DNA of 64,000 bases from a virus. The position numbers and the translations under genes are program-made. The first letter of the stretch is position 1; each line of letters opens with the position of its first letter. The stretch is taken from the IMG/VR virus record IMGVR_UViG_3300003873_000002, positions 90,124 through 154,123 of that record; one strand, given 5' to 3'. Below, piece after piece: positions 16,630-58,129 of the stretch. Under the pieces are notes generated by a model, which saw only the letters and a list, made by a program, of their open reading frames with translations, was not told the DNA's origin and searched no databases.

Positions 16630-16631
16630 AA

Positions 16632-17942
16632 ATGTTTATTTCTAAAATATTAAAGAACATGAGAAGGTGCGAACAAGATGATTCAAATACATCGCACACT
16701 GTTAAAGGTGTTATACATGAAATGATCATTCATGCAAAACTTGAACGCATTAAAAATAAACTTGATGAAGATTCGAGTAACATTTCAATATCACAAAATA
16801 TCTATAACTTTCTTAAAAGTATAAAAACTGATGATATTAATATCAAAGCGATGATTAAAGATATGATGGTATCTTATTTTATTCATAATGATAAATATGC
16901 AACATACCTTAAAAATTATTTTGTTAATGAATTAAATCTGGATAAAAAACTGATAGAAAGTCTTGAAAATAAATTGAGAAGACGCGGTGTTACTAGCGAT
17001 TTCTATAAAATAATGAAAAAATTATTTATTTTTGATGATAATGGTTTTTTGTCCTCTACAAATGACAAACGCCCAGATTATAATGAAATTAACGCAAATG
17101 GATTTATTTCAGATTATTCAAAACCACTTTGTAATAAAATACAAAATACAACAGGAATAAATTCTGATATAATCGAATCTGTGTTTAGTGTTGTTGCGAA
17201 CCATAGTGGTGTTGTCGGTGGTCTTGGTGTTGGTAAATATGAAATAGCACTTATTATTTTCTTTAAAGGTGGTAAAAGTGCCGTTAAAGGCGATGTAATG
17301 TTAAACGATAAAAACGTTGAAGTCAAGGTGGGTAATGCGCGGTTAGGCAGTAATCTTAAAAATCATGCTGATGAAACACAAAGATTTTTAAAACTTACCT
17401 TTGATGCTGATACTGTGACTAGAAATGATGCGCCAATGCCAGTAAGTGTATTAGAATTTATGTGTGATGTTGTTGGAGCCACTAAACAGGATGCAAGTAG
17501 CACTGTGGTTAAAAATTCATTAAACTTTGTTGAAAAAAATATGATGACTCTTATTAATTATGTGACATCAACAAAGAAATATAATATAAACCTTAAAAAG
17601 TTTGTTAATTTTTATACAGCGAACTTTGTTAGTGAGATTTATGGTGGGGATTATAAAAAATACAACAGTGCTTTTTATAATGCATTTAAATCCAAAGATA
17701 TACAAAAGGATGTCATACCATTACTTGCTGCAACATCATTAATTTTATATAAAGAGTCCGAAGGGTTTAATATTTTTATTTTTATAAGTGGTACTGGTAA
17801 ATCTGCATTGAGCATAAATAAATTTACTGAAAAAGGCGTAGATGCCGCTATGAGAACATTTATCAAAAATGGTGGGAAAATTAACGGTACAACTGCATCA
17901 TCGAACCCAACAGGTGTTCGAATGAAATTGGGTGCCAAATAA
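16632..17942 (+). CDS. Hypothetical protein with possible PD-(D/E)xK nuclease motif
   Basis: GVGKYEIAL...KGDV.....VEVK. Confidence 0.45.
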   Translation: MFISKILKNMRRCEQDDSNTSHTVKGVIHEMIIHAKLERIKNKLDEDSSNISISQNIYNFLKSIKTDDINIKAMIKDMMVSYFIHNDKYATYLKNYFVNELNLDKKLIESLENKLRRRGVTSDFYKIMKKLFIFDDNGFLSSTNDKRPDYNEINANGFISDYSKPLCNKIQNTTGINSDIIESVFSVVANHSGVVGGLGVGKYEIALIIFFKGGKSAVKGDVMLNDKNVEVKVGNARLGSNLKNHADETQRFLKLTFDADTVTRNDAPMPVSVLEFMCDVVGATKQDASSTVVKNSLNFVEKNMMTLINYVTSTKKYNINLKKFVNFYTANFVSEIYGGDYKKYNSAFYNAFKSKDIQKDVIPLLAATSLILYKESEGFNIFIFISGTGKSALSINKFTEKGVDAAMRTFIKNGGKINGTTASSNPTGVRMKLGAK

Positions 17943-18014
17943 TTGGACTTAATTGAGACTAAATTAAGTCTAATTATGTGGGCTTAAATTAAATTAAACA
18001 AAAGAAGAATTTTT

Positions 18015-19610
18015 ATGTTAAAGAAAATTGTAGAAAATGCAAAAAACCACAGATCTGAAAATATTTTAGAAGCAAAAATGTTGGATATCAGTATTAAAAC
18101 CGTTAATAAATTTGCTACAAATCCAAATAAATGCTCTGTATTTCTTAGTGAGCCGGTTGATGTTTATCAAAAAACCGATGGTGTGAAGATTACATTAATC
18201 CGCACAGACACATCGTACGATAATACAATTGACGGTTTTTATAGGAACTGGGTTGTTGCATATAAAAACAATATTCTTTTTCATGACGAGTACAACTATG
18301 CCACACATAAAGATATTCACCATACTGTGGGTGCATCACAATTTAGTGTAGTATTAAAACATTTTTTGTCATTGCATATCAGAGGTGCCCTTAAATCAAT
18401 AAAGAAAAACACTGAGTATCTTATTGAATTTTTAATGAAAAAGCCGACACTTTCAAGTAACTATAAAACCAAGCATGGCATGGTATTAATAGGATATGCA
18501 AGAAGCTCTTATAAGATTAAAAATGGTAAAGTAACATCTACACCAAAATTATTTAAAACCATCGGTAGGGAGTCAATTGCGAGCGTATTTGATATTGATG
18601 TGCCCATGCATGTGTTCTCTGGTGTCCTTGGTGATTTTGATAATTTCCAGAAAAATATTATCGATACTAGGTTAGCACCAATCTTCTTAAAGTATAAAGC
18701 TAGTTTAGAATCTGCACCAGATAGTTGTAGTGTTATAGATATCATGAGAAATGTTTTTATTGAGCTAGAATCTGTTTATGGGGGCAATGAAGAAGGTGTT
18801 GTTATTACTGCAAAAAACAAATCATTTAATCTAAAATTTCAACAGGATTACCAAGTCGATCAAAAAGCCAGACAAATTATTAAAATGAAGCACCGAATGG
18901 ACGCTAAAAACAACGAAATATATTGGGAAAATGTTAGAAATTTCGCAGATGGGATTATTAAAGAGCTTGATATTAAAATGGGTGATACTACACCATTAAG
19001 AACTTTGCTTAGTAGAGTAAGCAATTTATTAACTCAAACCAGAATTGATATAGATTTTAAAAATAGTAAAAAAACAATGAGTACCATTGTTGATGATATC
19101 CAACTAACAATCAAATCAAAAATAATCAGAATGTTAGCCGGTAATAATGGTGCATTAATTATTGGTAAATTTAGAGTGCTTACAAATGCGCACACAAAAA
19201 TGATTAATGATGCACTTAAAAAATATGATACTGTTAATGTAGCTATTATCTCAAATAAAAATACCAAGAAAAATTTGCCTGTTATTGTCAAAATGATTGG
19301 ACTTACATTCGGTAGCAAAATTAATGTAGCGTTTGCAAGTACTGGCAATATTATTACATTGCTAGGCAAATTTGATGATAATATTAATACTGTTATAGCA
19401 GGCACCGATCGTGTGGAAGCTTATAAAAAACAACTACTGAGATCACCTGATATGAATATAGAGGAAATTGTGAGAAAAGATATAGATATCTCAGCGACTA
19501 AGGTAATCAAATCATTATCAGATGGTGATGAGTTCTTTTTAGCAAACACGCCGGAGCCAATACATGGCATGTACAACGAATTAAAACACATATATGTTGA
19601 TAACCAATAA
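18015..19610 (+). CDS. Fusion of ATP-dependent ligase-like domain and HIGH-type (cytidylyltransferase-like) nucleotidyltransferase
   Basis: QKTDG (motif I), EEGVVI (IV), LKFQ (V); C-terminal GKFRVLTNAH, AGTDR, ISATKV. Confidence 0.6.
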   Translation: MLKKIVENAKNHRSENILEAKMLDISIKTVNKFATNPNKCSVFLSEPVDVYQKTDGVKITLIRTDTSYDNTIDGFYRNWVVAYKNNILFHDEYNYATHKDIHHTVGASQFSVVLKHFLSLHIRGALKSIKKNTEYLIEFLMKKPTLSSNYKTKHGMVLIGYARSSYKIKNGKVTSTPKLFKTIGRESIASVFDIDVPMHVFSGVLGDFDNFQKNIIDTRLAPIFLKYKASLESAPDSCSVIDIMRNVFIELESVYGGNEEGVVITAKNKSFNLKFQQDYQVDQKARQIIKMKHRMDAKNNEIYWENVRNFADGIIKELDIKMGDTTPLRTLLSRVSNLLTQTRIDIDFKNSKKTMSTIVDDIQLTIKSKIIRMLAGNNGALIIGKFRVLTNAHTKMINDALKKYDTVNVAIISNKNTKKNLPVIVKMIGLTFGSKINVAFASTGNIITLLGKFDDNINTVIAGTDRVEAYKKQLLRSPDMNIEEIVRKDIDISATKVIKSLSDGDEFFLANTPEPIHGMYNELKHIYVDNQ

Positions 19611-19643
19611 CATCAAACAATGATAGATTAATAAGAGTCTTAT

Positions 19644-20360
19644 ATGCGCACAATTAATACCTCATACTTTGTAGAGTATAAACGTTTATATAAATTAGTC
19701 CATGAAGAAAATAAAAAAAATCTCGACACATTGAATTTGGTTAAGTTTCGCTTTATTCCACTTGAAGTTTTTCATACAGATATCCGGAACCTTTTTAATA
19801 AATATCTTGATGCTAATATTACAGAGATAAACTCGCCAGAAAATTATATGTATATTTCACCATCTGATTTTAAAAAGGCAAATGATTTGCTAGATAAAAT
19901 ATTTGGTAAAAATAAATTCTTGATCGCACATAGCATGAATAAAATTAAAAAAGATATACCAGAATATAATGAATTGGTAAGTGAGTATCCAACACTAGAA
20001 AAGAATGGTAGTTTCAAGTGTGATGTGTGTGGTCATATCGTTGATAACAAATTGAAAAAAATAGATGATATTGATTTGAAACCAATAAATAACGATGAAT
20101 ACATTTATGATATTTCAGGCTATGATAATAAAATGATTAAAATTGTTATAAATATGCCGAAAAATAAAACAATGGGCATTTATTTTATGGACGCTTATAA
20201 AAAACCCATAGAATCAGTGCAATTTGATATATTAAGCACGAATGATAGATTTTCAACAGGCCAAATAAATTGTGAGTTGAAAAATGAATATAAATATCTC
20301 GGTTTTTATAAAAAAGGTGTAGAAAATGAGCACATAAACCGTGGTAGATTTATGCGTTAA
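19644..20360 (+). CDS. Hypothetical protein
   Basis: 238 aa ORF, one CDVC motif. Confidence 0.55.
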   Translation: MRTINTSYFVEYKRLYKLVHEENKKNLDTLNLVKFRFIPLEVFHTDIRNLFNKYLDANITEINSPENYMYISPSDFKKANDLLDKIFGKNKFLIAHSMNKIKKDIPEYNELVSEYPTLEKNGSFKCDVCGHIVDNKLKKIDDIDLKPINNDEYIYDISGYDNKMIKIVINMPKNKTMGIYFMDAYKKPIESVQFDILSTNDRFSTGQINCELKNEYKYLGFYKKGVENEHINRGRFMR

Positions 20361-32868: not shown

Positions 32869-33834
32869 ATGTGTACACCGATGAAAAAAATTAACGAGCG
32901 TGAATTTATTTGGGCCCAAAAGTATAGACCCCAAACTGTAGATGATTTAATTTTTCCTGATAAAATTAAGAAAAAATTTCAATCATATGTCCAATCAGGC
33001 GAAATTCCAAATATCGCATTATGGGGTTCAATTCCAGGTTCGGGTAAAACATCTGCGGCGACTGCGATTATTACAGATCTTGATTGTGAAGTGCTATGGA
33101 TTAATGGGTCAAGAGAAAGAGGTATTGATGCGGTTAGAGTAAATATCACAAATTTTGCTTCAACAAATTCAATTGATGGAAGAGCAAAGGTGGTAATTAT
33201 TGATGAAGCGGATCAATTAACTGCCGATGCACAAAAGGCATTGAGAGGCATTATCGAAGAAGTTTCTGTATCATGCAGATTTATTTTTACTGGTAATTAC
33301 AAAGATAATATGATCGATCCTTTAATCAAACGCTTTATCTCATATGATTTGGATGAGTTATATCAAAGTGAATATAAACAAGAACTTGGTTTGCAGATTT
33401 ATCATAGATTGGTGTATATCCTTGAAAACGAAAATATTAGTTATGCACAAGATGATATCAAATCTATCATCACTAATATGTATCCATCCACAAGAGATAT
33501 GATTATGATGTTACAAGAATCGTCATATGGTGGCCAATTAGAAGTCAAAAACACAATCGATACTTTATCACATATTAAACACGCATTCGAATTAATTAAA
33601 CAAAATAATTTTCCAGCATTGCGTTTAATGTTAAATGAAGTTACTATGGTTGATACGTTTATTACACAAGTTTTCAAACACATCGATGAATATTTTGCCG
33701 TTGAGTCAATCCCTAAAGTAATTATGTTATTATCAGATTGTCAGGATAGTGCTAGAAATGCAAAAAACCCAACCATTACAATTACTGCACTATTTACGAG
33801 AATAATGGGTGACAAAAGCATCATTTTGTTATAA
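32869..33834 (+). CDS. gp44: Clamp loader large subunit
   Basis: WAQKYRP, PGSGKT, IIDEAD, AQKALRG. Confidence 0.93.
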   Translation: MCTPMKKINEREFIWAQKYRPQTVDDLIFPDKIKKKFQSYVQSGEIPNIALWGSIPGSGKTSAATAIITDLDCEVLWINGSRERGIDAVRVNITNFASTNSIDGRAKVVIIDEADQLTADAQKALRGIIEEVSVSCRFIFTGNYKDNMIDPLIKRFISYDLDELYQSEYKQELGLQIYHRLVYILENENISYAQDDIKSIITNMYPSTRDMIMMLQESSYGGQLEVKNTIDTLSHIKHAFELIKQNNFPALRLMLNEVTMVDTFITQVFKHIDEYFAVESIPKVIMLLSDCQDSARNAKNPTITITALFTRIMGDKSIILL

Positions 33835-33880: not shown

Positions 33881-34483
33881 ATGATTTTTAAAAGCACAAA
33901 AACATTTAATAATTTACCATGTTCACACCAGCAATGGATGGATTCTGATGAGGATGGGGTAATTGGTGCAGGTCAATGTGCCCAAACACATGGATATAGT
34001 AGATCGTTTATTTTCGAATTTTCTTGTAGTGAAGTAGATAGTTATGGGTGGGTCGTGGGTTTTAGTTCACTTAAAAAGGTTAAGAAGTGGCTAGAATATA
34101 TGTTTGACCATACTTCATTATGGGAATCATCTGACCCTCGCATCGACGATGTACTCAAAATAAATGATGAATTAGATATTCCATTATATAATTTAAGGGT
34201 TCTACCCACTGGTGTGTCTATGGAACAAACAGCATTATTTGTTTCTATGTATATTAATCCTTATATTTATGATACTACTGATGGTCGTTGCTGGATTTCT
34301 AGACTAGAAGTTAGAGAGAACGATAAGAATTCAGGTATTATTGAATTGACTGAAGAAGATGCGATTAAAATGTCACAGCGGTTGAATGAATATGAGCCTC
34401 ATAATTATTTCCCAACTAGGACTGTTTATAGATATACCATGCCAAAAAAATTAATTAACGAAATTGACACGTTTAGTGTTTAA
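33881..34483 (+). CDS. queD: 6-carboxytetrahydropterin synthase
   Basis: CSHQQW, CAQTHGY, FDHT, VREND. Confidence 0.8.
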   Translation: MIFKSTKTFNNLPCSHQQWMDSDEDGVIGAGQCAQTHGYSRSFIFEFSCSEVDSYGWVVGFSSLKKVKKWLEYMFDHTSLWESSDPRIDDVLKINDELDIPLYNLRVLPTGVSMEQTALFVSMYINPYIYDTTDGRCWISRLEVRENDKNSGIIELTEEDAIKMSQRLNEYEPHNYFPTRTVYRYTMPKKLINEIDTFSV

Positions 34484-34526: not shown

Positions 34527-34994
34527 ATGAATGAATGGGGTATTGAGCTACCCCCTCCACCTATGGAGGAGGTAGTTACACCAAAAACAAAGAAAAAATC
34601 AATATTTGATATTATTGGTTCAACATATAATAAGAGATATTTTGCAAGTGATGAGGATATAAATAGCTCATTGAATGAATTCATGCTTGTAAATATATTA
34701 TCAAATCACCCTGCTACAATTTTTTTGGCTGAGTACTTAAACAATCATAATATGCCATTACCAACAGCTTATAGATTTATTTATCATTCAATTCCAAAGG
34801 GTGCTATTCGAAATATTTTATATCCATCGAATAAAAAATCACAAAAAAATATCAGTGAAGATGAAATAGAGGTGATTTGCAAACATTATAAATGCAATGA
34901 AGTTATTGCACAAAAATATTTTAATATTTTGCCAAAAGAAGAACTTGATAAAATTGTGGATATGTATGCTGAGGGTGGTATAGTCAACCAATAG
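34527..34994 (+). CDS. gp62: Clamp loader small subunit
   Basis: IFDII, FMLVNILS, ICKHYKCN..IAQKY; near gp44. Confidence 0.7.
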   Translation: MNEWGIELPPPPMEEVVTPKTKKKSIFDIIGSTYNKRYFASDEDINSSLNEFMLVNILSNHPATIFLAEYLNNHNMPLPTAYRFIYHSIPKGAIRNILYPSNKKSQKNISEDEIEVICKHYKCNEVIAQKYFNILPKEELDKIVDMYAEGGIVNQ

Positions 34995-35083: not shown

Positions 35084-36043
35084 ATGATCAGTTTAAGCCA
35101 CAATGACCTTGATGGTGTAGTTTCACAATTTTCTGTGAGAATAAAATACGGTGAGAATAATACTTATATTAATACATCATATGCAGATATTTCATATTAT
35201 TTGAACGAAATTAAAACAAGCAAAACAAATGTATCAAATCAGAATCAAGAACTTATTGTTACTGATTTAAATTTTAAAAGCAGTGATATCGATATTTTAA
35301 TTAGTATGAGCGATGATTTTGATATCACATATATTGATCATCATTTATACGATGAAAATGACCTTAAAAAATTATACAAGTCAAAAATCACTACAGTGAT
35401 TGATACATCTAAATCGGCATCTCTTATTGCATATGAATATTTCATAAAAGGCAATGAAAATGCATTAAACCATGTGGACACTGATGAGTTTAAATATCTT
35501 GTAGACTGTACAAATGCATATGATATTTGGTTAACTGATTCAGAATTGTGGGATGATGGGTTTAAACTTAATAATGCTTTTTGGGATTTATCATTAAACT
35601 CATTTGCATCTCATGTAGTGAGTAACTCATATATGTACACTAGTTATATTAAACAACGTGGAAATGAAATAGATAACGATGCAAGAAAATATTTTTTAGG
35701 CGAAGGCAGTGTGCCGAAAGTAAAAGAAAATAATGGTTTATTATTATTTGCGAATAGATTTGTTGCATACGCACAATTTTTATTCCCGGATTTTAATTAT
35801 TACATGATTGTAACATCCGAAAAAAATATTTCGTTCAGAACAAAAGATCTAAATGATGATAGTAGCCTTTATTTTAAAGATAGTATTTGTGATTACGCAA
35901 ATAGTTTAGATGAAGTTGTTTCATGTGGTGGCCACAAACAAGCATTTGGTGTTACTTTAAAATCTGATTTAAGTGATAGTGATAAACAAAATGTAATTCA
36001 AAAACTTTATAATAAATTTAATGAATATCAGGTAAAAAGGTAA
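35084..36043 (+). CDS. DHH/DHHA1 phosphoesterase
   Basis: SHNDLDG, VTDL, IDHH, GGHKQAFG. Confidence 0.85.
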   Translation: MISLSHNDLDGVVSQFSVRIKYGENNTYINTSYADISYYLNEIKTSKTNVSNQNQELIVTDLNFKSSDIDILISMSDDFDITYIDHHLYDENDLKKLYKSKITTVIDTSKSASLIAYEYFIKGNENALNHVDTDEFKYLVDCTNAYDIWLTDSELWDDGFKLNNAFWDLSLNSFASHVVSNSYMYTSYIKQRGNEIDNDARKYFLGEGSVPKVKENNGLLLFANRFVAYAQFLFPDFNYYMIVTSEKNISFRTKDLNDDSSLYFKDSICDYANSLDEVVSCGGHKQAFGVTLKSDLSDSDKQNVIQKLYNKFNEYQVKR

Positions 36044-37911: not shown

Positions 37912-38238
37912 TTGTGGCTAAACACAGTTATTCACAGTTATTCACAGTTATTCACAGTTAATCACAGTTAATCATGCCCAACAAATATCAAAATTTATTT
38001 GGTGACAAGGCGTGCATATTTTTAAATTTTAACATCAAACATATACAAACATATACAAACATATACCAATAAATCATATCCATCTACATTAAAATTTTAA
38101 TCAATCATAATCAATCATAATCAATCATAATCAATCATATTAAACATAACTCATAATTATTCATAAAACGTGATTAATATCTAAAAATATGTTATAATAC
38201 ACAAAAGAAAGTAAACATTTAAAAAGAATAGGTGATGA

Positions 38239-39606: not shown

Positions 39607-39678
39607 TATAAAATTAACAGAAATTAACAGGAATTAACTGAAATTTTATTAAACAAACAATAAACTAAGAGGTAAAAT

Positions 39679-40110
39679 ATGGGTAATTCAAAAATAAATT
39701 ATACATGGGATGACTATGATAGAGACATCCATAATATTGCTGGTATTCTCAGAACACACGATAAGAAAGTTCATCTTGTATCGTTATACAGGGGATCACT
39801 TGGTATTGCAACACACCTGTCAAATATCATTGATGCGCCGTTATCAATAATTAAATTTCAAACGAGAGATGGCAACGACAAATCACCATATTTTATCCAC
39901 AATGAAGGAATTGACCAGGATGATACTGTAGTATTATTGGATGACATTTATGATACTGGGCATACTCTTGATGTGACGGAAGCCTTTCTCAAAGAGAATG
40001 GTTTTAATAATATATTAAAAATTGTATTGTTTACAAATAATGTTGTTGATGGTGTGCATTATGCTAATAAAACATCAGGAAAGTGGGTTGTTTTCCCATG
40101 GGAAGTTTAA
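39679..40110 (+). CDS. Type I purine phosphoribosyltransferase (Gpt-like)
   Basis: YTWDD, LYRGSL, PRPP loop VLLDDIYDTGHT, WVVFPWE. Confidence 0.85.
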   Translation: MGNSKINYTWDDYDRDIHNIAGILRTHDKKVHLVSLYRGSLGIATHLSNIIDAPLSIIKFQTRDGNDKSPYFIHNEGIDQDDTVVLLDDIYDTGHTLDVTEAFLKENGFNNILKIVLFTNNVVDGVHYANKTSGKWVVFPWEV

Positions 40111-40172
40111 TATTTTATAGAATTTTATTTCATAAAATGATTAAAAATGTTTAAAAAATAATTTAAAAACTG

Positions 40173-40201
40173 TTGACATTATTTATATTTTATATTATAA
40201 T
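40173..40201 (+). promoter_or_regulatory. Sigma-70-type promoter upstream of queC cluster
   Basis: TTGACA-N17-TATAAT. Confidence 0.75.
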
Positions 40202-40504
40202 AATCATAAGAATTTTAAACTAATTGGCTATTAAACTATTATAATAACCAATCAATAAACTGCTAAACAACCAATATACATCTATGTAGAAATTTTATAT
40301 AAATACTATGAGTAGTTTAATGAGTAGTTTAATGAGTAGTTTTTATTAATTATAAACTACACAAAACCACTGATAAATAACAGTTATTGTGCATTTATTT
40401 CATATAAGTCTGATTATGAGTAGTTTAATGAGTAGTTTAATGAGTAGTTTAATGAGTAGTTTAATGAGTTTAATGAGTAGAATGAATTTAAACCAAAGAA
40501 AGGA

Positions 40505-41239
40505 ATGTTTATGGAAGATTTATTACCACCAACTGATAATGTAACTGGTGTTGTAGCTGTTTTGAGTGGTGGTTTGGACTCAACAACACTAACATACGCT
40601 TTAGTTGATAAATATGGTAAAGATAAAGTATCTGCTTTATCGTTTATGTATGGACAAAAGCAATCAAAAGAGCTCGATTTGGCTGCGGTCACGTGTAAAA
40701 AACTTGGAATTGCACATAAGATTATTGATATTTCATTTCTAGGTGACATTGTAAGTAAAGTTTCTGCGAATATTGGAACATCAGAAGTTAAAATGCCAAC
40801 CATTAAAGACGTACTGGGTGATCCCCAACCACCAACATACGTGCCATTCAGAAATATGATTTTGAATTCAATTGCATTTAGTTATGCCGAAGTAAATGAA
40901 TGTAATTATATTGCAACTGGGCTTCAAATTCATGATGTATATGGATATTGGGACACCTCTAAGGCATTCGTGGATTCAATGAATAACGTGGCAAAAAATA
41001 ATAGAATGTTTGGTGTTGAAATGATTGCACCGTTCGCATCACTTTCAAAAAAAGATGAAATCGAAATTGGGGATACTTTAAACGTACCATATGAAGACAC
41101 ACTAACATGCTATAACCCATCTGATGATGGCAAATCATGTGGTGTTTGCCCATCATGCGCGGAAAGGATTCATAATTTTAAACTAGCTGGTAAAAAAGAC
41201 CCCGTTGAATATCAAATTGATATTAAGTGGAGTGTTTAG
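40505..41239 (+). CDS. queC: 7-cyano-7-deazaguanine synthase
   Basis: SGGLDSTT, YGQK, TYVPFRN, TCY...CGVCPSC. Confidence 0.95.
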   Translation: MFMEDLLPPTDNVTGVVAVLSGGLDSTTLTYALVDKYGKDKVSALSFMYGQKQSKELDLAAVTCKKLGIAHKIIDISFLGDIVSKVSANIGTSEVKMPTIKDVLGDPQPPTYVPFRNMILNSIAFSYAEVNECNYIATGLQIHDVYGYWDTSKAFVDSMNNVAKNNRMFGVEMIAPFASLSKKDEIEIGDTLNVPYEDTLTCYNPSDDGKSCGVCPSCAERIHNFKLAGKKDPVEYQIDIKWSV

Positions 41240-41878
41240 ATGTGTGCTATATTTGGATCATTCGAAAAACAAACCTTAATGGATTTGTATAATAAAAACA
41301 AATACAGAGGAAATTTTAGTTTTTCAATCACTAGCATTGATACAAAAACACTTAAATCATCCACAAATAAATTTTTTGGCGAAATGGATGAAAAACAACT
41401 AGATAATTGCTTTGTTGAAGGCAGATATCATATATGTCATACACAAGCACCCACAAATGTGCGCGTAAATGATTTTAATAGAATTCATCCAGTTCAAATA
41501 GATGATTATAAATTATTGCATAACGGGATTATTGTTAGTGATTACAATATTAAACTTAAAGAAAAATATAACACAGGGTGTGATTTTGATACATTTAATC
41601 TTGCAGCAGCAATTAAAACTGACGGATACAGTGTATTAAATGATATGCAGGGGTCTTTTGCGTGTGTAGAGATCACAGAGCATAATTATCCACGTATTTT
41701 TAGAAACGAAAACAGTATTTTGTGTACAGATGGGGTGAATATCAGTTCAGCAAAACTTAAAGGATATACCCCAATTATACCAAATCAGGTTTATAAAATT
41801 GATTTTAATAATGGTGTTGATGGGATAGAAATAATTGAAAGTTTTAATAACAAATATACAAATTTTTATTTCGAATAA
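41240..41878 (+). CDS. Class II (Ntn) glutamine amidotransferase
   Basis: N-terminal MC, HTQAPT, HP, HNGII, GSFA; abuts queC. Confidence 0.75.
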   Translation: MCAIFGSFEKQTLMDLYNKNKYRGNFSFSITSIDTKTLKSSTNKFFGEMDEKQLDNCFVEGRYHICHTQAPTNVRVNDFNRIHPVQIDDYKLLHNGIIVSDYNIKLKEKYNTGCDFDTFNLAAAIKTDGYSVLNDMQGSFACVEITEHNYPRIFRNENSILCTDGVNISSAKLKGYTPIIPNQVYKIDFNNGVDGIEIIESFNNKYTNFYFE

Positions 41879-41901
41879 ATTTTGGTATCAAGGAAAGAGA
41901 G

Positions 41902-42714
41902 ATGAATAAAAAGAAACCATTACTGGTAAGTGAAATTTTTGGTGCGGGTGGTACTGGATACCCAACAATTCAAGGTGAGGGCCCATTTTGTGGTAATCCC
42001 TCAATTTTTATCAGATTAGGTGGGTGTAATTTTACATGCGAGGGATTTGGATGCACGGAGGTAGCACCAGATGGAACAACAGTCAATGGGTGTGATTCAA
42101 TTTACTCAGTTTCGCAGAAATTTAAAGAAACGTGGTCACCATATACAGATTTCATGGATATTGTGGATGCAGTTAATTATGAACAACGAAATATGAAAAA
42201 TGAAGCAAACATGCAGCCAGTTGATATTGTTATTACTGGTGGTGAGCCATTAATGCAGCATCAAAATATTGTTCTTATTAATACAATTGAATATTTTATT
42301 ACCAGGGGACATCGTGTAACAATGGAAACAAATGCATCTGTGCATGTTAACTTCATAAAATACCCAATTTATAAAAAGGTCATTTTTACAATGTCTGTTA
42401 AATTAGCTGTATCTGGTGAACCGTATGAAAAAAGAGTTAAAGTAAAAACAATCAATGCTATTATTCAAAATACAAAAGGAAGTCATTTTAAATTTGTGGT
42501 AAGTAAAGAAGAAGCAGATAATGGTGTAATGGAAATTAAAGAAATTCTACGCAAAATTCCAGAATATGCAGATGTTTATTTAATGCCACTTGGAATGCAT
42601 GCAGATGAAATTGATAAAAATTTACCAGCAGTTGCACAAGCATGTGTCAGGGAACAGTTTAAATTATCTGATAGATTGCACGTCAGAGTGTTTGGTGCTG
42701 AGAAAGGTACATAA
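41902..42714 (+). CDS. queE: 7-carboxy-7-deazaguanine synthase (radical SAM)
   Basis: TIQGEG, FIRLGGCNFTC..(insert)..GCDS, ITGGEP, ETN, RLHV. Confidence 0.93.
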   Translation: MNKKKPLLVSEIFGAGGTGYPTIQGEGPFCGNPSIFIRLGGCNFTCEGFGCTEVAPDGTTVNGCDSIYSVSQKFKETWSPYTDFMDIVDAVNYEQRNMKNEANMQPVDIVITGGEPLMQHQNIVLINTIEYFITRGHRVTMETNASVHVNFIKYPIYKKVIFTMSVKLAVSGEPYEKRVKVKTINAIIQNTKGSHFKFVVSKEEADNGVMEIKEILRKIPEYADVYLMPLGMHADEIDKNLPAVAQACVREQFKLSDRLHVRVFGAEKGT

Positions 42715-42794
42715 ATCATTTAAAATCATTTAAAATCATTTAAAATCATTTAAAATCATTTAAACAAATAAAACAAAACAAGAAGAGATGAACT

Positions 42795-43553
42795 ATGAAC
42801 GAGCAAAAAGATTTTGTTTACAAAAGACTAATAAAAAAATATAATATGTCAATTGACCAATTTAATGACATTTATAATCAATATGAAGCAATGGAACCAT
42901 TTAAAATCAGTGAATCATGTTATGAAGTAGGATACAACATTAGTGATGAATTGCATTATATTATTAGATTGTCGACACAATATTTTATCACAAAGGCATT
43001 CAAAGCAATGAAGGTTGATTTAAGTGATGCGAATGTTGAAGAAAACATGGGTGAAGGAAATATCGGCACACCAGGTAGAGTAGCTAAAATGTGGTGTGGT
43101 GGTCATTTAAATGATGATTCAGAACATTTGAGCGGTCGATGGTCAAAAACACCAAGAATTGCAAGTTTTCCAAATACAACCAATAACAAACAACCTATTA
43201 CGAAACGAGTTAGCTTAATGAGTGTTTGTAGCCATCACTTAGCGCCATTTTCATCACTATTCAATGAAAATTCTGTTGCCACGATCTCATACATCCCAAA
43301 TAAACTTGTAATCGGAATTTCCAAGTTACAACGTCTAGTAGAATCTGTCGCAAGAAGGGGTTGGCTACAAGAAGATTTAACAAGAAAAATTTATGAAGAA
43401 GTAAGTAAAATTTGTGAAACAGAATCTGTTTCTGTTAAACTCGAAAATATTGAGCATACGTGTGAGACAACTAGGGGCGCAAAAAATCCAGAGGGTGGGT
43501 TTACATCTGTTTATGAGGGAGGTCAATTTTTAAATCATAAAATAAAAACTTAA
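42795..43553 (+). CDS. folE: GTP cyclohydrolase I
   Basis: TPGRVAKM, SVCSHHLAPF, IGISKLQR, LQE, EHTC..RG. Confidence 0.92.
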   Translation: MNEQKDFVYKRLIKKYNMSIDQFNDIYNQYEAMEPFKISESCYEVGYNISDELHYIIRLSTQYFITKAFKAMKVDLSDANVEENMGEGNIGTPGRVAKMWCGGHLNDDSEHLSGRWSKTPRIASFPNTTNNKQPITKRVSLMSVCSHHLAPFSSLFNENSVATISYIPNKLVIGISKLQRLVESVARRGWLQEDLTRKIYEEVSKICETESVSVKLENIEHTCETTRGAKNPEGGFTSVYEGGQFLNHKIKT

Positions 43554-43623: not shown

Positions 43624-43791
43624 ATGAAACCGATAGAACAGATAGAACAGATAGAACAGATGAAACAGATGAAACAGATGAAACAATCAAATGAAAAAAC
43701 TTTCAATTTTTTATTTGGTGAATTTTTTTATTTAGTAATTAGTGTTTTGATTTTATATTTGTGTGTCGCATATATTGTTGATTCTGTTTGA
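43624..43791 (+). CDS. Small membrane protein (55 aa)
   Basis: AAGGAG RBS; MKPIEQIEQIEQMKQMKQMKQ...FFYLVISVLILYLCVAYIVDSV. Confidence 0.5.
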   Translation: MKPIEQIEQIEQMKQMKQMKQSNEKTFNFLFGEFFYLVISVLILYLCVAYIVDSV

Positions 43792-43883
43792 TTCTGTTTG
43801 ATTCTGTTTGGTTCTGTTTGGTTCTGTTGAAATACAATATATTTATGATTAAACGTGCACTTTAAGCACACCAAAGGATAAAA

Positions 43884-46664
43884 ATGAGTTTACAATACGA
43901 AAATATTTTCCGTGCAGGTAACAAATATATCGAGCGGTTAAAAAATACAGAGACAGGTGATATTATTTTCCGCCGCTATAAACCACCATTTGAGGTTTTT
44001 ACACAAACCGAGGAAGAATCTGAATATAAATATATCCTAGACCAAAATATTAATTTAGAAAGAAACACATTCAATAGTGGTTATGAAATGAATGAGTTTA
44101 TTAAACTCTGTAAACAAATAAAAAGACCATTATATGGTAAATCAAATCCAATCAATACATATATTAGAGATAATTACTTTTTTAAACACGAAGGGTTTTC
44201 ATCGAGAATATGGCATTTAGATATTGAAGCAATCCCTGTAAAAGGTGAAGGATTTCCTGACCCGGTGGAAGCAAAATACCCAATTAATACTTTTCAAATT
44301 TATGATAATCTTGAAGAAAAAGTATTTATTATTATGTCTAGGGAATTATCTGAAGAATTTAAAACTGGGATGGTTGATAAGTATAAATGTGAAATCGATT
44401 TCATTATATGCAAAGATGAAATCGAAATGTTTGAACAATTCTTTAATCTATTAGATGATTTTAAACCCGCTATTATTGATGCATGGAACGGTGAGTTTTT
44501 CGATTTTCCATATATCACAAACAGAGCAAAAAATCTAATTGGTGTTAATCATTTGCGTTTAAGCCCGGTAAGGCATATTGATGAAAAACCAGTACAAACA
44601 GCAATGGATAATTTCAATAAAGTCATGTGGAGTGGAATTTCACTTATCGACACGATGGCTGCATATAAAAACTTTACATTCGTAACACAAGTAAGTTATT
44701 CATTAGATAATATTGCGAGTGTTGAATTGGGTGAAGGAAGTGGCAAAGTTGATTATGGTGAATTTAATAATATTATTGATTTTTATCACGGTGACCATGA
44801 AAAATTTATAGATTATGCAATCAAAGACGTAATAATTCTTAGAGATTTAGAATCAAAGCTTAATTTGTTGGAAATCATCCGAATGCTATCATATATGATG
44901 GGAATTGTTTATGATGATGCAATGGGAACAGTGAAACCATGGGGTTCGTATCTCACAAACACTTCATATCACGATAAATTAATCATGCCATTGGATGAAA
45001 AGCACGAAATAGAAGAATCTATCGTTGGTGGATTTGTTAAACAACCATCAGTGGGATTACATGAATTTGTAATTTCTATTGACTACAACTCTTTATATCC
45101 AAGTAAATTGGATTCACAAAATATGAGCATCGAAACATACATCAAACCTGATGATTTGCCAGATGAACTCAAAACGTTCTATTATAATAATATGATTGGG
45201 CAAGATGAATCAAAATTTGAAAATAAAGAACTTCAGAAGGAAATTAAAAAATTAACAAACAAATACAACGTTAGTTTTGGTACAAACGCATTCTTTTCCA
45301 ACGAAAAAAAGGGTATTATCCCAACAATCGTTACTGATATTTATGCATCACGCAAAATAGATAAATTAAAGATGTTAAAATATAATGTGATGATTACTCA
45401 AATCGATAACGCTTTAATTAATGTTACAGATGATGATAAAAGCGGTTTTGTATACGACTTGAACCGCATCGAAGAAAATATTGCAGAATTTGATGAATTA
45501 AACAATGTTGACCTATCCAATGTATCAAAAACAGCACTTATGGAAACAAAAGATCATTGTGTAATTAAAGCAGCTTACTGGGAAACCAGTCAGATGGTTA
45601 AAAAAATCAACATCAACTCATTGTATGGCGCACTTGGTAACGCATTTTTTGTTGGATTTAATGATAATATAGCGAAAAGTATTACGGGCACAGGTAGATT
45701 AATTATTAGATTGACTGGTAATTATATTGAACAAAAATTAAACGACATTTTGGGTAAAAGTGATGAACCTAGATGGGTGTATACAGATACAGATAGTTGT
45801 TATTTTGAGTTAAAAGACCTTAAAAATATGTTGTGTAAAAAACTTTTCGACAAAGATTATAGTGATATTAGTTATGAACAGCGTCAGATTATTTTAGAGA
45901 AAACATTGAATTTTACTGATGAGTATATCAATAAATGGGTAGATGAAATTATAGCTTATTATATGGACTTTTCACATAGTTATGATAATATTATACTTGG
46001 CGCTAAACTTGAAAAAATTGCAGACAAGGGATTGTTTGTAGCAAAGAAAAAATACTCCCTGAGAGTAATTTATGATGAAGGAAATATTCTACTTGAACAC
46101 CCAAAAGTTAAAACTTCAGGGCTTGAGATTGTAAGGTCATCTACACCATCATTTTGCAAAAGCAAATTATATGAAGGAATGTACAATATTTTTGAGTACG
46201 ATGAATTATACCTCCAAGATTATTTTAAAACAGTTAGAGATGAGTTTGTTAAACAACCAATTGAAAAAATATCAAAAGTGTCTGGTGTTTCTAATTTAAA
46301 CTATAAACTCGATGCAAAAGGTTTTTATAGAATAAATCCAGAAACAAACAAGCGAGTTCCTTGCCCAATTAATTCAAGAGCTGCATTAGTCCACAACATA
46401 ATAGTACAAAAACTTAACTTAACAGATTTTCAACTTATTACTGCTGGCGAAAAAATAAAATACTGTCATTTGTTGCTACCCAATCCATATATGTCAAATA
46501 TTGTGGGATATATGGATGAACGATTTATTGAAGAAGCGAATCTCGCCGAATTTATCGACTATGATACTTGCTTTGAAAAAAACTTTATTAAACCATTAGA
46601 AATTATGCTAGATGCAATTGGTTGGAGTGCAGTAAAACAAACAAATATTGATGAGTGGATTTAA
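43884..46664 (+). CDS. gp43: Family B DNA polymerase
   Basis: DIE exonuclease motif, WNGEFFDFPY, DYNSLYPS, KININSLYG, YTDTDS, KKKY. Confidence 0.97.
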   Translation: MSLQYENIFRAGNKYIERLKNTETGDIIFRRYKPPFEVFTQTEEESEYKYILDQNINLERNTFNSGYEMNEFIKLCKQIKRPLYGKSNPINTYIRDNYFFKHEGFSSRIWHLDIEAIPVKGEGFPDPVEAKYPINTFQIYDNLEEKVFIIMSRELSEEFKTGMVDKYKCEIDFIICKDEIEMFEQFFNLLDDFKPAIIDAWNGEFFDFPYITNRAKNLIGVNHLRLSPVRHIDEKPVQTAMDNFNKVMWSGISLIDTMAAYKNFTFVTQVSYSLDNIASVELGEGSGKVDYGEFNNIIDFYHGDHEKFIDYAIKDVIILRDLESKLNLLEIIRMLSYMMGIVYDDAMGTVKPWGSYLTNTSYHDKLIMPLDEKHEIEESIVGGFVKQPSVGLHEFVISIDYNSLYPSKLDSQNMSIETYIKPDDLPDELKTFYYNNMIGQDESKFENKELQKEIKKLTNKYNVSFGTNAFFSNEKKGIIPTIVTDIYASRKIDKLKMLKYNVMITQIDNALINVTDDDKSGFVYDLNRIEENIAEFDELNNVDLSNVSKTALMETKDHCVIKAAYWETSQMVKKININSLYGALGNAFFVGFNDNIAKSITGTGRLIIRLTGNYIEQKLNDILGKSDEPRWVYTDTDSCYFELKDLKNMLCKKLFDKDYSDISYEQRQIILEKTLNFTDEYINKWVDEIIAYYMDFSHSYDNIILGAKLEKIADKGLFVAKKKYSLRVIYDEGNILLEHPKVKTSGLEIVRSSTPSFCKSKLYEGMYNIFEYDELYLQDYFKTVRDEFVKQPIEKISKVSGVSNLNYKLDAKGFYRINPETNKRVPCPINSRAALVHNIIVQKLNLTDFQLITAGEKIKYCHLLLPNPYMSNIVGYMDERFIEEANLAEFIDYDTCFEKNFIKPLEIMLDAIGWSAVKQTNIDEWI

Positions 46665-46802: not shown

Positions 46803-47621
46803 ATGAAATATAACATCAAAAAAAGATTCAGAGATTGGGTTGCAAAATTAACTACTAAAAACTGCAAAATTTATTATCCCAGAGATAGCAATTACCTCAA
46901 CAATGTATTTTATGCGGATGAAAATTATAACGAAGATAATTATACTATCCGAGGTGTTTATAGCATTGATAATCAAAATCGCATCAAGATGCTAGAAGAA
47001 ATGTTTAATATTCAAGAAATTATGAATAATCGGATTGATGAAAAATGGCGATCACGTAATAACGACTATGGGATTGCAGCAATTCTTGAAAGTGCAGAAT
47101 TGATTGACCATCTAGATTGGAAATGGTGGAAAAGTGGAAAAAATGATATTAAACAGGCGTATATCGAGTCTATCGATATTCATCACTTTTTAATGTCTAT
47201 TATTGTAGATCCAAATAAAAATAATTTATTTGCTGAGTATTTGCTATCATCAACATATGATGAACACACGTATAATTTTGATATCAAGAGTATTGAGAAC
47301 ACCACATTAGAGATGATTGAATATATATTGAGTTATAATAAAACATGTGATGAAGATGATATTTTAAACGCAATTGCATGCAATATAAGAATATCATTTA
47401 TGCTATGTGGTGATTTTGAAAAATTTTATAAAACTTATATTGGTAAAAATGCTCTTAATATGTTCAGACAAGATAATGGTTATAATGATGGCACATATAT
47501 CAAAATTTGGAATGGTGAAGAAGACAATGTTTATCTTGAAAAAATAATGCAAACAAATAATGTTTTTAGTGATATTTATAATGGTTTGGAGCTGGCATAT
47601 AAAGAAATAATCATTAATTAA
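46803..47621 (+). CDS. Dimeric (all-alpha) dUTPase family NTP pyrophosphatase
   Basis: ESAELID..WKWWK, ESIDIHHF, KNALNMFRQDNGY..G.Y.K.W.GEEDN. Confidence 0.85.
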   Translation: MKYNIKKRFRDWVAKLTTKNCKIYYPRDSNYLNNVFYADENYNEDNYTIRGVYSIDNQNRIKMLEEMFNIQEIMNNRIDEKWRSRNNDYGIAAILESAELIDHLDWKWWKSGKNDIKQAYIESIDIHHFLMSIIVDPNKNNLFAEYLLSSTYDEHTYNFDIKSIENTTLEMIEYILSYNKTCDEDDILNAIACNIRISFMLCGDFEKFYKTYIGKNALNMFRQDNGYNDGTYIKIWNGEEDNVYLEKIMQTNNVFSDIYNGLELAYKEIIIN

Positions 47622-56583: not shown

Positions 56584-57408
56584 ATGCCATTAAAATTTGC
56601 ACCGTATTCATTTAGTAAAATTACAACGTTTACCCAGTGCCCGAAGAAATTCAAATTTAAATATATAGATAAAATTTATTTTAAATCTGACAATATCGCG
56701 CTAGAAAAGGGTAGTTATATACACCTACTATTGGAAATACTGGCAAATCCATCATTTGCAGATTCAAGAAAGATTGATATTGTATCTACCGCTATGCATG
56801 TAATTAATAAAACACAGTTCAAATTTTCACTATCAACTGAACAAGATATTAAATCACACCAAAAAATCTTTTTAAATTTTATTCAAAGCGATATAGGCCA
56901 CAAGTATTTTATTGATTATGATATCATCTCTGCAGAAGAAGAGTTTGGTATAAAGTGGGATAACAATAACTTTGATGCAACAAGCTATTACAATAAATCA
57001 GCTACTATCAGAGGAAAGGTTGACCAAATTTCAAAAAATGGCAATGAAATCCATATCATTGATTGGAAGTCAGGAAAGGTACCTCAAGAAATAAGTGAAA
57101 TGCAAATTCAACTTTACGCTATCTGGTTTTTTCTTAAATTTAAAAATATAGATAAAGTAATAACATCATTTGTTTATATTGAACACAACAAAGAAAAAAC
57201 AGTTGTATACAAAAGAGATGATATCCCACTTATTAAAAAAGCGTACGGAAGACGAATCAAAGAAATTGAAATTGAAAATTCTTTTAATAAAAAAGAAACA
57301 CACATGTGCAATTGGTGTGAGTATAGAAATAAAGGGCTTTGTGACGAATTAAGCTCATTTAAAAATATCAAATTACAAACCCAAAATAGTCAAAATAAGA
57401 GATTATAA
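56584..57408 (+). CDS. Cas4-like / RecB-family PD-(D/E)xK exonuclease
   Basis: YSFSK..CP, GSYIH, RGKVD, IDWKSG, QIQLYA, CNWCEY....LC (four-Cys arrangement). Confidence 0.85.
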   Translation: MPLKFAPYSFSKITTFTQCPKKFKFKYIDKIYFKSDNIALEKGSYIHLLLEILANPSFADSRKIDIVSTAMHVINKTQFKFSLSTEQDIKSHQKIFLNFIQSDIGHKYFIDYDIISAEEEFGIKWDNNNFDATSYYNKSATIRGKVDQISKNGNEIHIIDWKSGKVPQEISEMQIQLYAIWFFLKFKNIDKVITSFVYIEHNKEKTVVYKRDDIPLIKKAYGRRIKEIEIENSFNKKETHMCNWCEYRNKGLCDELSSFKNIKLQTQNSQNKRL

Positions 57409-57409
57409 A

Positions 57410-58129
57410 ATGTTTAAAAGTATTTATGAATTTATGTCTGCGCCCTTAGAAATTAGTAGTGATATTAATAAATTCAATGAAGTAATCAAAAACGACAATA
57501 TCATGGACGAAATTAATGAAAAGGGTGTAATTTTACTTTATATTGAGAGCGGGATGCTCGAATTTGTTGAAGCATTAATCAAAAACGGCGCTAATATCCA
57601 AATAGTAGATATTGATGGTTTTACACCACTTGATTATGCTATCTCATTTGAAATGTATGATATTGTTGAACTACTTGTCGATAGTGGTTTTAAACTAGTA
57701 TATAACGGGTGCAGTGCACCATTAGTTGATGCAATTAACACTAATAACATAAAAATAGTTGAATTATTATTGGCATCTTATACCAAAGAAAGTTTAGATA
57801 TTCCTGTAAATACTGGTATTTATGCGGGCGCATATCCATTGCATCTAGCAATTTATAATCCATACATTTTGCTACTATTGATTAGATATGGATTTGATAT
57901 TAATAGAGAAACAGACAACCATATTTATAATGTACTTGAAGCAGCCATTTATAATAATGCACCACCAGAAATAATTGAGATACTTATTGATGCAGGTGCA
58001 GATACAGAATGTTTGAAAAATGATGCGAGGGTAATGAAAATTATTGACGACAATTATAAACCATCAGAAATAGAATTTTTTAAAAAATTAGAAAGCGGTG
58101 AATTGGTATTGAATAAGTATAACCAATAA
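57410..58129 (+). CDS. Ankyrin-repeat protein
   Basis: LIKNGANI..DGFTPLDYA, YPLHLA, LIDAGAD. Confidence 0.85.
   Translation: MFKSIYEFMSAPLEISSDINKFNEVIKNDNIMDEINEKGVILLYIESGMLEFVEALIKNGANIQIVDIDGFTPLDYAISFEMYDIVELLVDSGFKLVYNGCSAPLVDAINTNNIKIVELLLASYTKESLDIPVNTGIYAGAYPLHLAIYNPYILLLLIRYGFDINRETDNHIYNVLEAAIYNNAPPEIIEILIDAGADTECLKNDARVMKIIDDNYKPSEIEFFKKLESGELVLNKYNQ

Follow-up and report, generated by a model that had tools for sequence, protein, structure and literature searches.

A run of genes for the synthesis of 7-deazaguanine lies immediately 5' of the DNA polymerase gene in the window, by which we mean the whole 64-kb stretch of the contig that was analyzed (Table 1). It begins with a gene encoding a phosphoribosyltransferase (PRTase) and continues through queC, a gene for a class-II glutamine amidotransferase (Gat), queE, and folE directly to gp43. 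A preliminary description of the DNA gave this same arrangement, and it holds: all of the genes are intact and lie on the plus strand. It was also right that queD stands apart, as a queD-like gene is inserted between the two clamp-loader genes gp44 and gp62.

Table 1. Features of the 7-deazaguanine cluster and its surroundings (positions in the window)
Feature	Position	Strand	Length (aa)	Evidence or remark
gp44	32869..33834			clamp-loader gene
QueD-like 6-carboxytetrahydropterin synthase	33881..34483	+	200	PF01242 (E 3e-13); phrog_2389 (E 3e-29)
gp62	34527..34994			clamp-loader gene
Gpt/XGPRT-type purine PRTase (by sequence)	39679..40110	+	143	PF00156 (E 2.6e-14)
Sigma-70 consensus promoter-like site	40173..40201	+		TTGACA-17-TATAAT; 12/12 pattern match
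QueC, 7-cyano-7-deazaguanine synthase	40505..41239	+	244	PF06508 (E 5e-55)
Gat, standalone class-II (Ntn) glutamine amidotransferase	41240..41878	+	212	phrog_12378
QueE, radical-SAM 7-carboxy-7-deazaguanine synthase	41902..42714	+	270	TIGR models and CP220-type homology
FolE, GTP cyclohydrolase I	42795..43553	+	252	PF01227 (E 1.3e-28); CSHH and HTCE motifs
gp43-type family B DNA polymerase	43884..46664	+		PF00136, PF03104; adjoins the cluster
All-alpha NTP pyrophosphohydrolase (dUTPase_2/MazG-like)	46803..47621	+	272	PF08761 (E 2.7e-24); phrog_173 (E 4e-20)

QueC exceeds the cut-off of its family model (TIGR00364, 166.8 bits vs 150.3), retains the SGGLDS PP-loop and a zinc motif (Cys202/212/215/218), and is 63-65% identical to the QueC of KVP40-like phages. 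QueE matches five QueE TIGR models, four of them with E-values of 1e-12 to 3e-14, short of the cut-offs of those models, and one at 1.6e-9, and it is 44% identical (E 1e-62 to 2e-64) to QueE of the Campylobacter Firehammervirus group (CP220). The QueD-like protein is 28-31% identical to the QueD proteins of phages phiST and immuto and carries the phage-type motif CxxxHGY, of which HGY is common to the phage QueD family. The polymerase, gp43, is about 30% identical to its counterparts in KVP40 and CP220.

The NTP pyrophosphohydrolase encoded directly 3' of gp43 is possibly a nucleotide-pool arm of the system. MazG or PRA-PH genes are also found beside the clusters of phiST and immuto; by sequence, no orthology was detected between these and the enzyme encoded here.

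The PRTase gene has its own ribosome binding site, 72 bp 3' of the gp41 helicase gene. The promoter-like site, the only 12/12 match between positions 38000 and 48000, falls within the 394-bp gap 5' of queC. Its location suggests that queC-gat-queE-folE may form a transcription unit apart from the PRTase.

QueC, its probable amidotransferase partner, and the predicted base

The start codon of gat abuts the stop codon of queC. Gat gives only weak matches to the N-terminal part of GlmS (E 4e-5), but it has an MCAIFG N-terminus and an HNGII motif; a 63%-identical homologue (P0027) carries PF13522, and the KVP40 orthologue is annotated with PF00310. It is 32-34% identical to the ORF directly 3' of queC in KVP40-like Vibrio phages and Pseudomonas phage pf16, where the same gene order and translational coupling are seen, and in pf16 the pair likewise lies just 5' of the DNA polymerase gene. 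Matches to Gat by tblastn were confined to Vibrio phages and pf16, with none in 9g-like phages. As in phages of the KVP40 type, Gat is probably a conserved glutaminase that works with QueC rather than a standalone enzyme that sets the final substituent, as had been proposed for it. A Gat-QueC fusion, like the dG+ synthase of the phage 9g type, was considered and rejected, as each protein here has an ORF of its own and queC precedes gat.

Since QueC scores above the cut-off of its model and neither QueF nor DpdL was found in the contig, the final base is predicted to be preQ0 (7-cyano). The contig (154 kb) is about 85% complete, and the part not covered could hold other tailoring genes. The clusters of KVP40-like phages and pf16 carry a putative QueF-like gene (annotated as "GTP cyclohydrolase") and, between it and folE, an uncharacterized ORF of 440-460 aa. 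In the DNA of relatives such as phi-Grn1 and phi-ST2, dPreQ1 is present, at a low level only (PMC10516641), and DpdA2 has been described in another relative, nt-1 (PMC6884629).

The PRTase and its association with 7-deazaguanine genes

The PRTase carries the PRPP motif of type I PRTases (LLDDIYDTGHT) and a PPi loop (YRGS). A profile of its family matches the purine PRTase of P. horikoshii (1vdm, 6e-23) and the XGPRT of E. coli (1a95, 5e-9) over positions 2-144. These motifs and the full-length similarity to solved enzymes assign it to the Gpt/XGPRT type. It is similar in length to E. coli Gpt (143 vs 152 aa), and with that enzyme and the archaeal purine PRTases (1a95, 1vdm, 4z1o) it has in common the PRPP motif, DDxxD, a Trp, and PW(D/E). 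R38, G39, D88, D89, D92, T96, W136, P140, and W141 do not vary between E. coli Gpt and the PRTases of this phage, phiST, immuto, and CP220. D92 we take to be the contact to purine N7 in Gpt. The likeness has limits. The phage protein is only 17-18% identical to E. coli Gpt, and it scores 26.8 bits against NCBIfam NF006613, where the cut-off is 138, so by sequence it is not an equivalog. Lys115 of E. coli Gpt, presumably the contact to O6, shows no clear conservation in the subfamily, in a region where the alignment is gappy. Furthermore, among 185,579 species genomes none of the cellular proteins matched SIIKFQTRDG, a loop motif of the subfamily, so the specificity of the enzyme may have diverged. 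Its closest homologue in an isolate is the PRTase of phiST (26% identity, E 1e-13).

Among 80 IMG/VR loci with relatives of the PRTase, QueE, FolE, or QueD is encoded in the flank of 58 (72%; median gap 104 bp) and within 500 bp in 42 of the 80, against a background in which QueE matches 384 of 50,697 phage records (<1%). Most often the PRTase gene sits between those for QueE, QueD, and FolE; 35 of the 80 loci have a TGT-like gene, and 31 IMG/VR loci have clusters combining PRTase and DpdL. The PRTase is encoded as well in phiST, immuto, and CP220. The suggestion that it is part of the 7-deazaguanine system is thus borne out by conservation.

What it does there is hinted at by two observations. 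In a DpdA1-type siphophage with the gene order queE-queC-queD-folE-dpdA, a PRTase-like domain is fused to the N-terminus of FolE. Modification by clusters of this order is motif-specific and partial (PMC10484667), hence post-replicative, and a route through a deazaguanine nucleotide makes no sense there. Second, the end products in phages with the same PRTase family differ (dDG, fdPreQ1, and dADG; PMC10516641), a pattern compatible with one shared substrate, for instance guanine. The published accounts of DpdA3-type systems that we located mention neither the small PRTase nor the P-loop kinase encoded alongside DpdA3. We predict that this conserved PRTase is a helper of the 7-deazaguanine system.

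A DpdA3-family transglycosylase and possible routes to guanine replacement

The preliminary description had no dpdA in view. This stands for the window, in which no TGT/DpdA gene was found, but not for the genome. A search of the remaining contig, which that description had named as a check on its reading, found what it had named as counting against it: a gene encoding a DpdA3-family transglycosylase at G000:C1:16374-17135, 72,989 bases before the window starts and about 113 kb from the base-synthesis cluster. A scan of the whole contig identified no other TGT-like gene. The protein is assigned to phrog_19058, keeps the DNSxFE and D-x-S motifs, and is 49% identical (E 1e-66) to the "DNA guanine transglycosylase" of Flavobacterium phage immuto (immuto_2-6A). 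To the group of CP220 gp056 it is about 40% identical (E 8e-43), and CGPG_00065 of phiST is matched at E 2e-14. With its AF2 model (pLDDT 80), both TGT and DpdA structures were hit with a probability of 1.0. The genome therefore has a DpdA3-subfamily gene together with FolE, QueD, and QueE, which lead to CDG, and a tailoring step (QueC). With DpdA3 in the same contig, we take the cluster to be the half of a DpdA3-type system that makes the base, and the phage joins CP220, phiST, and immuto.

The resemblance to each of these is partial. Immuto has FolE, QueD, QueE, and a small PRTase in a cluster, and the kinase adjoining its DpdA3 is 33% identical to the one here, but it also has QueF and the formyltransferase DpdN, its polymerase is of family A, and the SIIKFQTRDG loop is absent from its PRTase. 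The phage considered here has no QueF or DpdN, has its genes at two loci, and has a QueC with a Gat partner. CP220, with its dADG system, is likewise a T4-like myovirus, has a kinase adjoining DpdA3 that is 35% identical, and shares an HD-kinase fusion and a small PRTase. However, its genes are scattered over the genome, no Gat homologue was found in CP220, and its product is the amide ADG, whereas a nitrile is predicted here, where QueC passes the canonical equivalog model. The dDG system of phiST (FolE, QueD, QueE, DpdL, DpdA3) shares the PRTase and a DpdA3 beside a P-loop kinase, and its cluster, which includes a MazG-type gene, likewise adjoins the polymerase region; phiST, though, lacks QueC, using the decarboxylase DpdL, and its genome is not T4-like.

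We propose, at about even odds, a DpdA3-type replacement of guanine in which the PRTase recycles the guanine expelled. FolE, QueD, and QueE would convert GTP to 7-carboxy-7-deazaguanine, and QueC would convert this to preQ0 with ammonia from the adjoining glutaminase. DpdA3 would then swap guanine in DNA for the 7-deazaguanine base, an exchange that probably runs to the end, as it does in CP220, phiST, and immuto. The Gpt-like PRTase would combine the expelled guanine, as well as guanine from the breakdown of host nucleic acid, with PRPP to form GMP, which kinases would raise to GTP, again a substrate for FolE. Since guanine is a product of a reversible exchange, its removal would pull the exchange to completion. 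Several considerations weigh against this reading. To our knowledge, every fully substituted phage base of known route is made at the nucleotide level. DpdA3 with DpdL failed to modify DNA in E. coli (PMC10516641). The departures of the PRTase subfamily from Gpt, the incompleteness of the contig, and the 22 of 80 loci in whose fetched flank no deazaguanine gene is seen count against it as well.

Perhaps, instead, and in essence as the preliminary description had it, the PRTase acts like TubE/ToyH on preQ0, ADG, or CDG, after which a kinase, NrdAB, NDK, and gp43 incorporate the product during replication. This we consider unlikely, although several observations favor it. TubE and ToyH, compared here by context, are PF00156 enzymes encoded in FolE/QueD/QueE clusters for nucleoside antibiotics in Streptomyces; TubE has been shown to be a CDG-specific PRTase, with decarboxylation following at the nucleotide level (PMC6112128), and the clusters combining PRTase and DpdL parallel this route. 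The phage PRTase has the same setting, here and in most loci. In addition to NrdA/NrdB, the phage encodes an NTP pyrophosphatase and a gp1-like dNMP kinase; phiST has the gene order PRTase, kinase, one ORF, RNR; a PRTase is present in each of the three isolates for which replacement of every G has been demonstrated; and a failed reconstitution with DpdA3 and DpdL lacked it (PMC10516641). But the TubE/ToyH clusters and genomes, which make free nucleosides, have no TGT/DpdA, while DpdA3 is present in this genome and a TGT-like gene occurs alongside the PRTase in four of four lineages and in 35 of the 80 loci. Under such a route the transglycosylase would be redundant; the route is no longer needed, and it would leave DpdA3 without a role. 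Moreover, D92 is invariant and 7-deazapurines lack N7, its presumed contact; each lineage would require a PRTase of different specificity (CDG, preQ0, preQ1-type); and the RNA pool would receive the ribonucleotide too. The fusion of the PRTase-like domain to FolE in a post-replicative cluster of DpdA1 type (PMC10484667) argues in the same direction.

Or perhaps the substrate of DpdA3 is not DNA but dGMP, which an NTP pyrophosphatase would form from dGTP. After the exchange of the base, the kinase would phosphorylate the product and gp43 would incorporate it, with the PRTase again recycling guanine. We regard this too as doubtful. It would account for the P-loop kinase gene found directly after DpdA3 in this phage and beside or close to it in immuto, CP220, and phiST; for the operon that DpdA3 shares with genes of nucleotide metabolism (a DCD-like enzyme, dCMP deaminase, and ThyX); for the MazG/PRA-PH/dUTPase_2-type pyrophosphatases near the clusters; and for the 100% substitution in three isolates and the ADG nucleoside in the cytoplasm of CP220-infected cells (as cited in PMC10516641). 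DpdA3 proteins are small (about 250-310 aa), acidic (pI 4.6-6.4), and without the CxCxxC zinc motif, although size and acidity are weak indicators. Against exchange at the nucleotide level, all characterized TGT/DpdA enzymes act on polynucleotides, no kinase adjoins DpdA3 in 10 IMG/VR loci of the FolE-DpdL-DpdA3-DCD type, and pf16 has NTP pyrophosphatases with a cluster in which a different, much larger uncharacterized ORF stands in the place of DpdA3.

That the PRTase is a generic auxiliary gene for salvaging purines from degraded host nucleic acids, with no tie to modification, is very improbable in view of its association with deazaguanine genes far above background and its fusion to FolE, even though 22 of the 80 loci have no such gene in the flank fetched and gpt-like relatives occur in PA5oct-like jumbo phages (a comparison of the genes themselves).

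Implications for complete guanine replacement

In phages of three known lineages, a 7-deazaguanine takes the place of every G. DpdA3 is not known to have worked in vitro or in E. coli, where DpdA3 with DpdL failed to modify DNA (PMC10516641). The contig adds an environmental, T4-like lineage as the fourth, and its tailoring set differs from the others in having QueC and a split glutaminase but neither QueF nor DpdL. From this set, a genome fully of the dPreQ0 type is predicted, one not reported in the table of PMC10516641. Either the PRTase or the P-loop kinase could be the ingredient missing from the failed reconstitutions. Should DpdA3 prove to act on nucleotides, the pathway would be pre-replicative, parallel to those for hmC in T4 and Z in S-2L, and would overturn the published view that all 7-deazaguanines are post-replicative.

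The synthesis genes and their setting

All genes named in the preliminary description (those for the phosphoribosyltransferase, or PRTase, QueC, the amidotransferase Gat, QueE, FolE and QueD) are present and intact. The cluster is real and belongs to a known kind of system; what does not stand is the proposed route without DpdA, for a member of DpdA3, the transglycosylase subfamily of the all-G-replacing phages phiST (dDG), immuto (fdPreQ1) and CP220 (dADG), lies in the same contig.

Coordinates of the features discussed (window positions unless marked as contig, the whole 154-kb record G000:C1, or as a fetched locus, L plus number)
Feature	Position	Remarks
QueD-like gene	33881-34483	between gp44 and gp62
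DHH-family phosphoesterase-like protein	35084-36043	weak match (E 6e-5); between gp62 and Dda-like helicase
PRTase	39679-40110	PF00156, E 2.6e-14
Sigma-70 consensus site	40173-40201	perfect pattern match inside the 394-bp PRTase-queC gap
QueC	40505-41239	above TIGR00364 equivalog cut-off; PP-loop and four zinc cysteines
Gat	41240-41878	starts at the base right after the queC stop; begins MCAIFG, HNGII inside
QueE	41902-42714	44% identity to Firehammervirus QueE
FolE	42795-43553	zinc motif present
Short tandem arrays	39611-39645, 40308-40342, 40416-40480, 42713-42764, 43624-43685, 43778-43828	units of 9-12 nt, 3-7 copies
Cas4-like PD-(D/E)XK nuclease, then ankyrin-repeat protein	56584-58129	unusual for a T4-like phage
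DpdA3	contig 16374-17135	253 aa
Nucleotide-metabolism run headed by DpdA3	contig 17231-20257	outside window; includes AAA_28 kinase
HD-domain and AAA_33 kinase fusion	contig 79264-80238 (- strand)	outside window; 33% identical to CP220 gp055
PRTase-FolE fusion, gp47	L103:4971-5864	Stenotrophomonas phage vB_SM_ytsc_ply2008005c
Longer TGT-like families	L059:659-2200; L043:7897-9186	family of 15, ~510 aa; family of 9, ~430 aa
Families without Pfam match	L053:14916-15308; L094:4541-5644	27 loci, ~130 aa; 24 loci, 364 aa

The window, with a GC of about 30%, takes up the final 64 kb of an IMG/VR viral contig of 154,123 bp, whose completeness is estimated at 85%. T4-type replication genes (gp44, gp62, a Dda-like helicase, gp41, gp43, UvsW, gp45, gp32 and RNase H) surround the cluster, and NrdA/NrdB and a gp1-like dNMP kinase are also encoded. 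Identity of the gp43 to the polymerase of any isolate reaches only about 30%, the best matches including those of KVP40-like Vibrio phages and of CP220 from Campylobacter. The cluster gave no megablast match to phage records. Short tandem arrays, the unit differing from one to the next, occupy almost all gaps between the genes of the cluster. Nearly all of the phage QueD family, the phiST and immuto members included, shares the CxxxHGY variant of the QueD-like protein.

The ORF after queC is, judged by its sequence, a class-II glutamine amidotransferase: PF13522 is found in a 63%-identical homologue, and the orthologue in KVP40 has a PF00310 annotation. KVP40-like Vibrio phages have a QueC 63-65% identical to the one here, and in these phages and in Pseudomonas phage pf16 the ORF right after queC is 32-34% identical to Gat. 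A gene annotated 'GTP cyclohydrolase' in their clusters is taken as putatively QueF-like, and phi-Grn1 and phi-ST2, members of the KVP40-like group, carry dPreQ1 in their DNA (PMC10516641), so the QueC-Gat pair there would yield preQ0. The simplest role for Gat would be to supply ammonia to QueC. The arrangement here differs from the Gat-QueC fusion of the 9g type, which makes dG+ (PMC6884629), and no 9g-like phage is among the Gat matches. Since neither QueF nor DpdL (the putative CDG decarboxylase) was found in the contig, preQ0 is the predicted final base; it may instead be ADG or G+.

The transglycosylase outside the window

The preliminary description saw no dpdA, correctly for the window, and went on to infer pre-replicative incorporation of a deazaguanine nucleotide. 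With DpdA3 elsewhere in the contig, this inference fails by the criterion which that description itself had set. The TGT model PF01702 finds no match in the whole contig, a false negative explained by the divergence of DpdA3; the 2023 paper that defined the subfamily detected it only by HHpred (PMC10516641). When phiST CGPG_00065, taken from its record, was compared by BLAST with the ORFs of the contig, it matched the DpdA3 gene at E 2e-14. The product shares 49% of its residues (E 1e-66) with the immuto_2-6A 'DNA guanine transglycosylase' and about 40% with the CP220 gp056 group. Its AlphaFold model (pLDDT 80, pTM 0.80) resembles TGTs from bacteria, archaea and mouse as well as the DNA preQ0 insertase DpdA (7ui4), all with a match probability of 1.0. 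It is the sole TGT-like gene in the contig.

Downstream of DpdA3 lie genes for a P-loop kinase (PF13521), a dCTP-deaminase-like (DCD-like) protein, dCMP deaminase and ThyX. Among these, the DCD-like protein stands out as strongly conserved: most of the IMG/VR loci concerned match it at E 1e-54 to 1e-61, and in ten IMG/VR loci its gene stands directly after DpdA3 or one ORF further. Outside this run is the HD-kinase fusion, whose relative CP220 gp055 is encoded just upstream of CP220 DpdA3; it was given little weight as part of the system, in view of its PHROGs placement near polynucleotide kinases.

The phosphoribosyltransferase family and its neighbours

A profile built from 24 database relatives of the PRTase matches, over its full length, E. 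coli XGPRT at 5e-9 and, more strongly, 1vdm, the purine PRTase of P. horikoshii, at 6e-23. The PRTase of this phage was aligned with E. coli Gpt, with its counterparts in phiST, immuto and CP220, and with the N-terminal domain of FolE from a Stenotrophomonas phage. Invariant throughout are R38, G39, D88, D89, D92, T96, W136, P140 and W141, which we take to represent, in Gpt, the PPi loop, the PRPP motif, the stacking Trp and, at D92, the Asp contacting purine N7. The loop motif of the subfamily, SIIKFQTRDG, had no counterpart among the 185,579 species genomes scanned. Within the phage record collection, tblastn with the PRTase found the phiST group only; the CP220 PRTase, annotated and divergent, was found by protein-level search and record annotation and missed by PF00156. 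The immuto PRTase sits between QueE and FolE.

In IMG/VR, 80 loci with PRTase relatives were fetched. They contain QueE (54 loci), FolE (42-45), QueD (32-34) and DpdL (31-33). At least one of QueE, FolE and QueD occurs in 58 of the 80, and within 500 bp of the PRTase in 42 (median gap 104 bp); for comparison, QueE occurs in 384 of 50,697 phage records. Many of the contigs are T4-like, with a cassette of QueE, PRTase, QueD, FolE, DpdL and DpdA3 placed among gp44, gp62, gp45 and gp43, the same placement as in this phage. Among the commonest PRTase neighbours in such contigs are the two families without a Pfam match, the 364-aa one often beside DpdL.

TGT-like genes occur in 35 of the 80 loci, of which 11 have DpdA3 and the other 24 members of two longer families. 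The longer families adjoin PRTase/DpdL clusters and have an invariant DSGGFQ or DSGGLQ. Neither has a match in PDB profile searches and they have almost none in Pfam; their assignment as TGT-like draws on the motif DSGG[FL]Q, on hhalign (91% and 69%) and on a single weak match in Pfam, and they may represent further unnamed DpdA subfamilies.

In one siphophage isolate that was checked, gp47, annotated as FolE, carries an N-terminal extension of about 117 aa homologous to the small phage PRTases, with RG, DDxxD and WVVFPWE kept, in which Pfam detects no PRTase. Similar matches under the name 'GTP cyclohydrolase' come from Vibrio VpKK5-like, Sphingomonas and Pseudomonas siphophages. The fusion is absent from all 80 IMG/VR loci and came up solely when the immuto PRTase served as query. 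A search limited to lengths of 393 aa and above, hence beyond fusions of ~300-390 aa, found no longer PRTase of this kind.

What the phosphoribosyltransferase may do

To our knowledge, every TGT-type exchange releases guanine. Guanine is also the substrate of Gpt-type enzymes, and GTP that of FolE. We therefore favour a guanine recycling loop, giving it about an even chance of being right: the PRTase would return the expelled guanine to GMP and then to GTP, which would feed FolE, and recycling would also take away the product of a reversible exchange.

It is unlikely that the PRTase acts on the deazaguanine base itself, as the preliminary description proposed. The co-occurring TGT-like enzyme would then be left without a role, and D92, presumably the contact to purine N7, is invariant in the family, whereas 7-deazapurines have no N7. 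There is precedent in TubE, a PRTase specific for CDG and encoded in a cluster with FolE, QueD and QueE, in whose pathway decarboxylation follows at the nucleotide level (PMC6112128). However, one PRTase family accompanies the end products dDG, fdPreQ1 and dADG (PMC10516641), which fits one common substrate. Also, the siphophage with a PRTase-like domain N-terminal to FolE has the cluster order queE-queC-queD-folE-dpdA. Queuovirinae are described with this order, and their dPreQ0, which takes the place of about 16% of G at a GA motif, must be inserted after replication (PMC10484667).

Perhaps DpdA3 instead exchanges the base on a nucleotide. A P-loop kinase lies adjacent or close to DpdA3 in this phage, immuto, CP220 and phiST; the protein is small, acidic and without the zinc subdomain; substitution is complete in isolates; and DpdA3 failed in E. 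coli (PMC10516641). Yet in the ten IMG/VR loci it is the DCD-like gene, not a kinase, that stands beside DpdA3. We regard this reading as about as unlikely as the preceding one. The idea of a conserved dGTPase was dropped, the dUTPase_2 protein of the window having no detectable homology to the pf16 or phiST pyrophosphatases.

Neither the DpdA3 paper (PMC10516641) nor the iggy paper (PMC10484667) mentions a phosphoribosyltransferase. What makes the Gpt-like PRTase interesting is its conservation, as an unstudied part of the systems behind full replacement of G.
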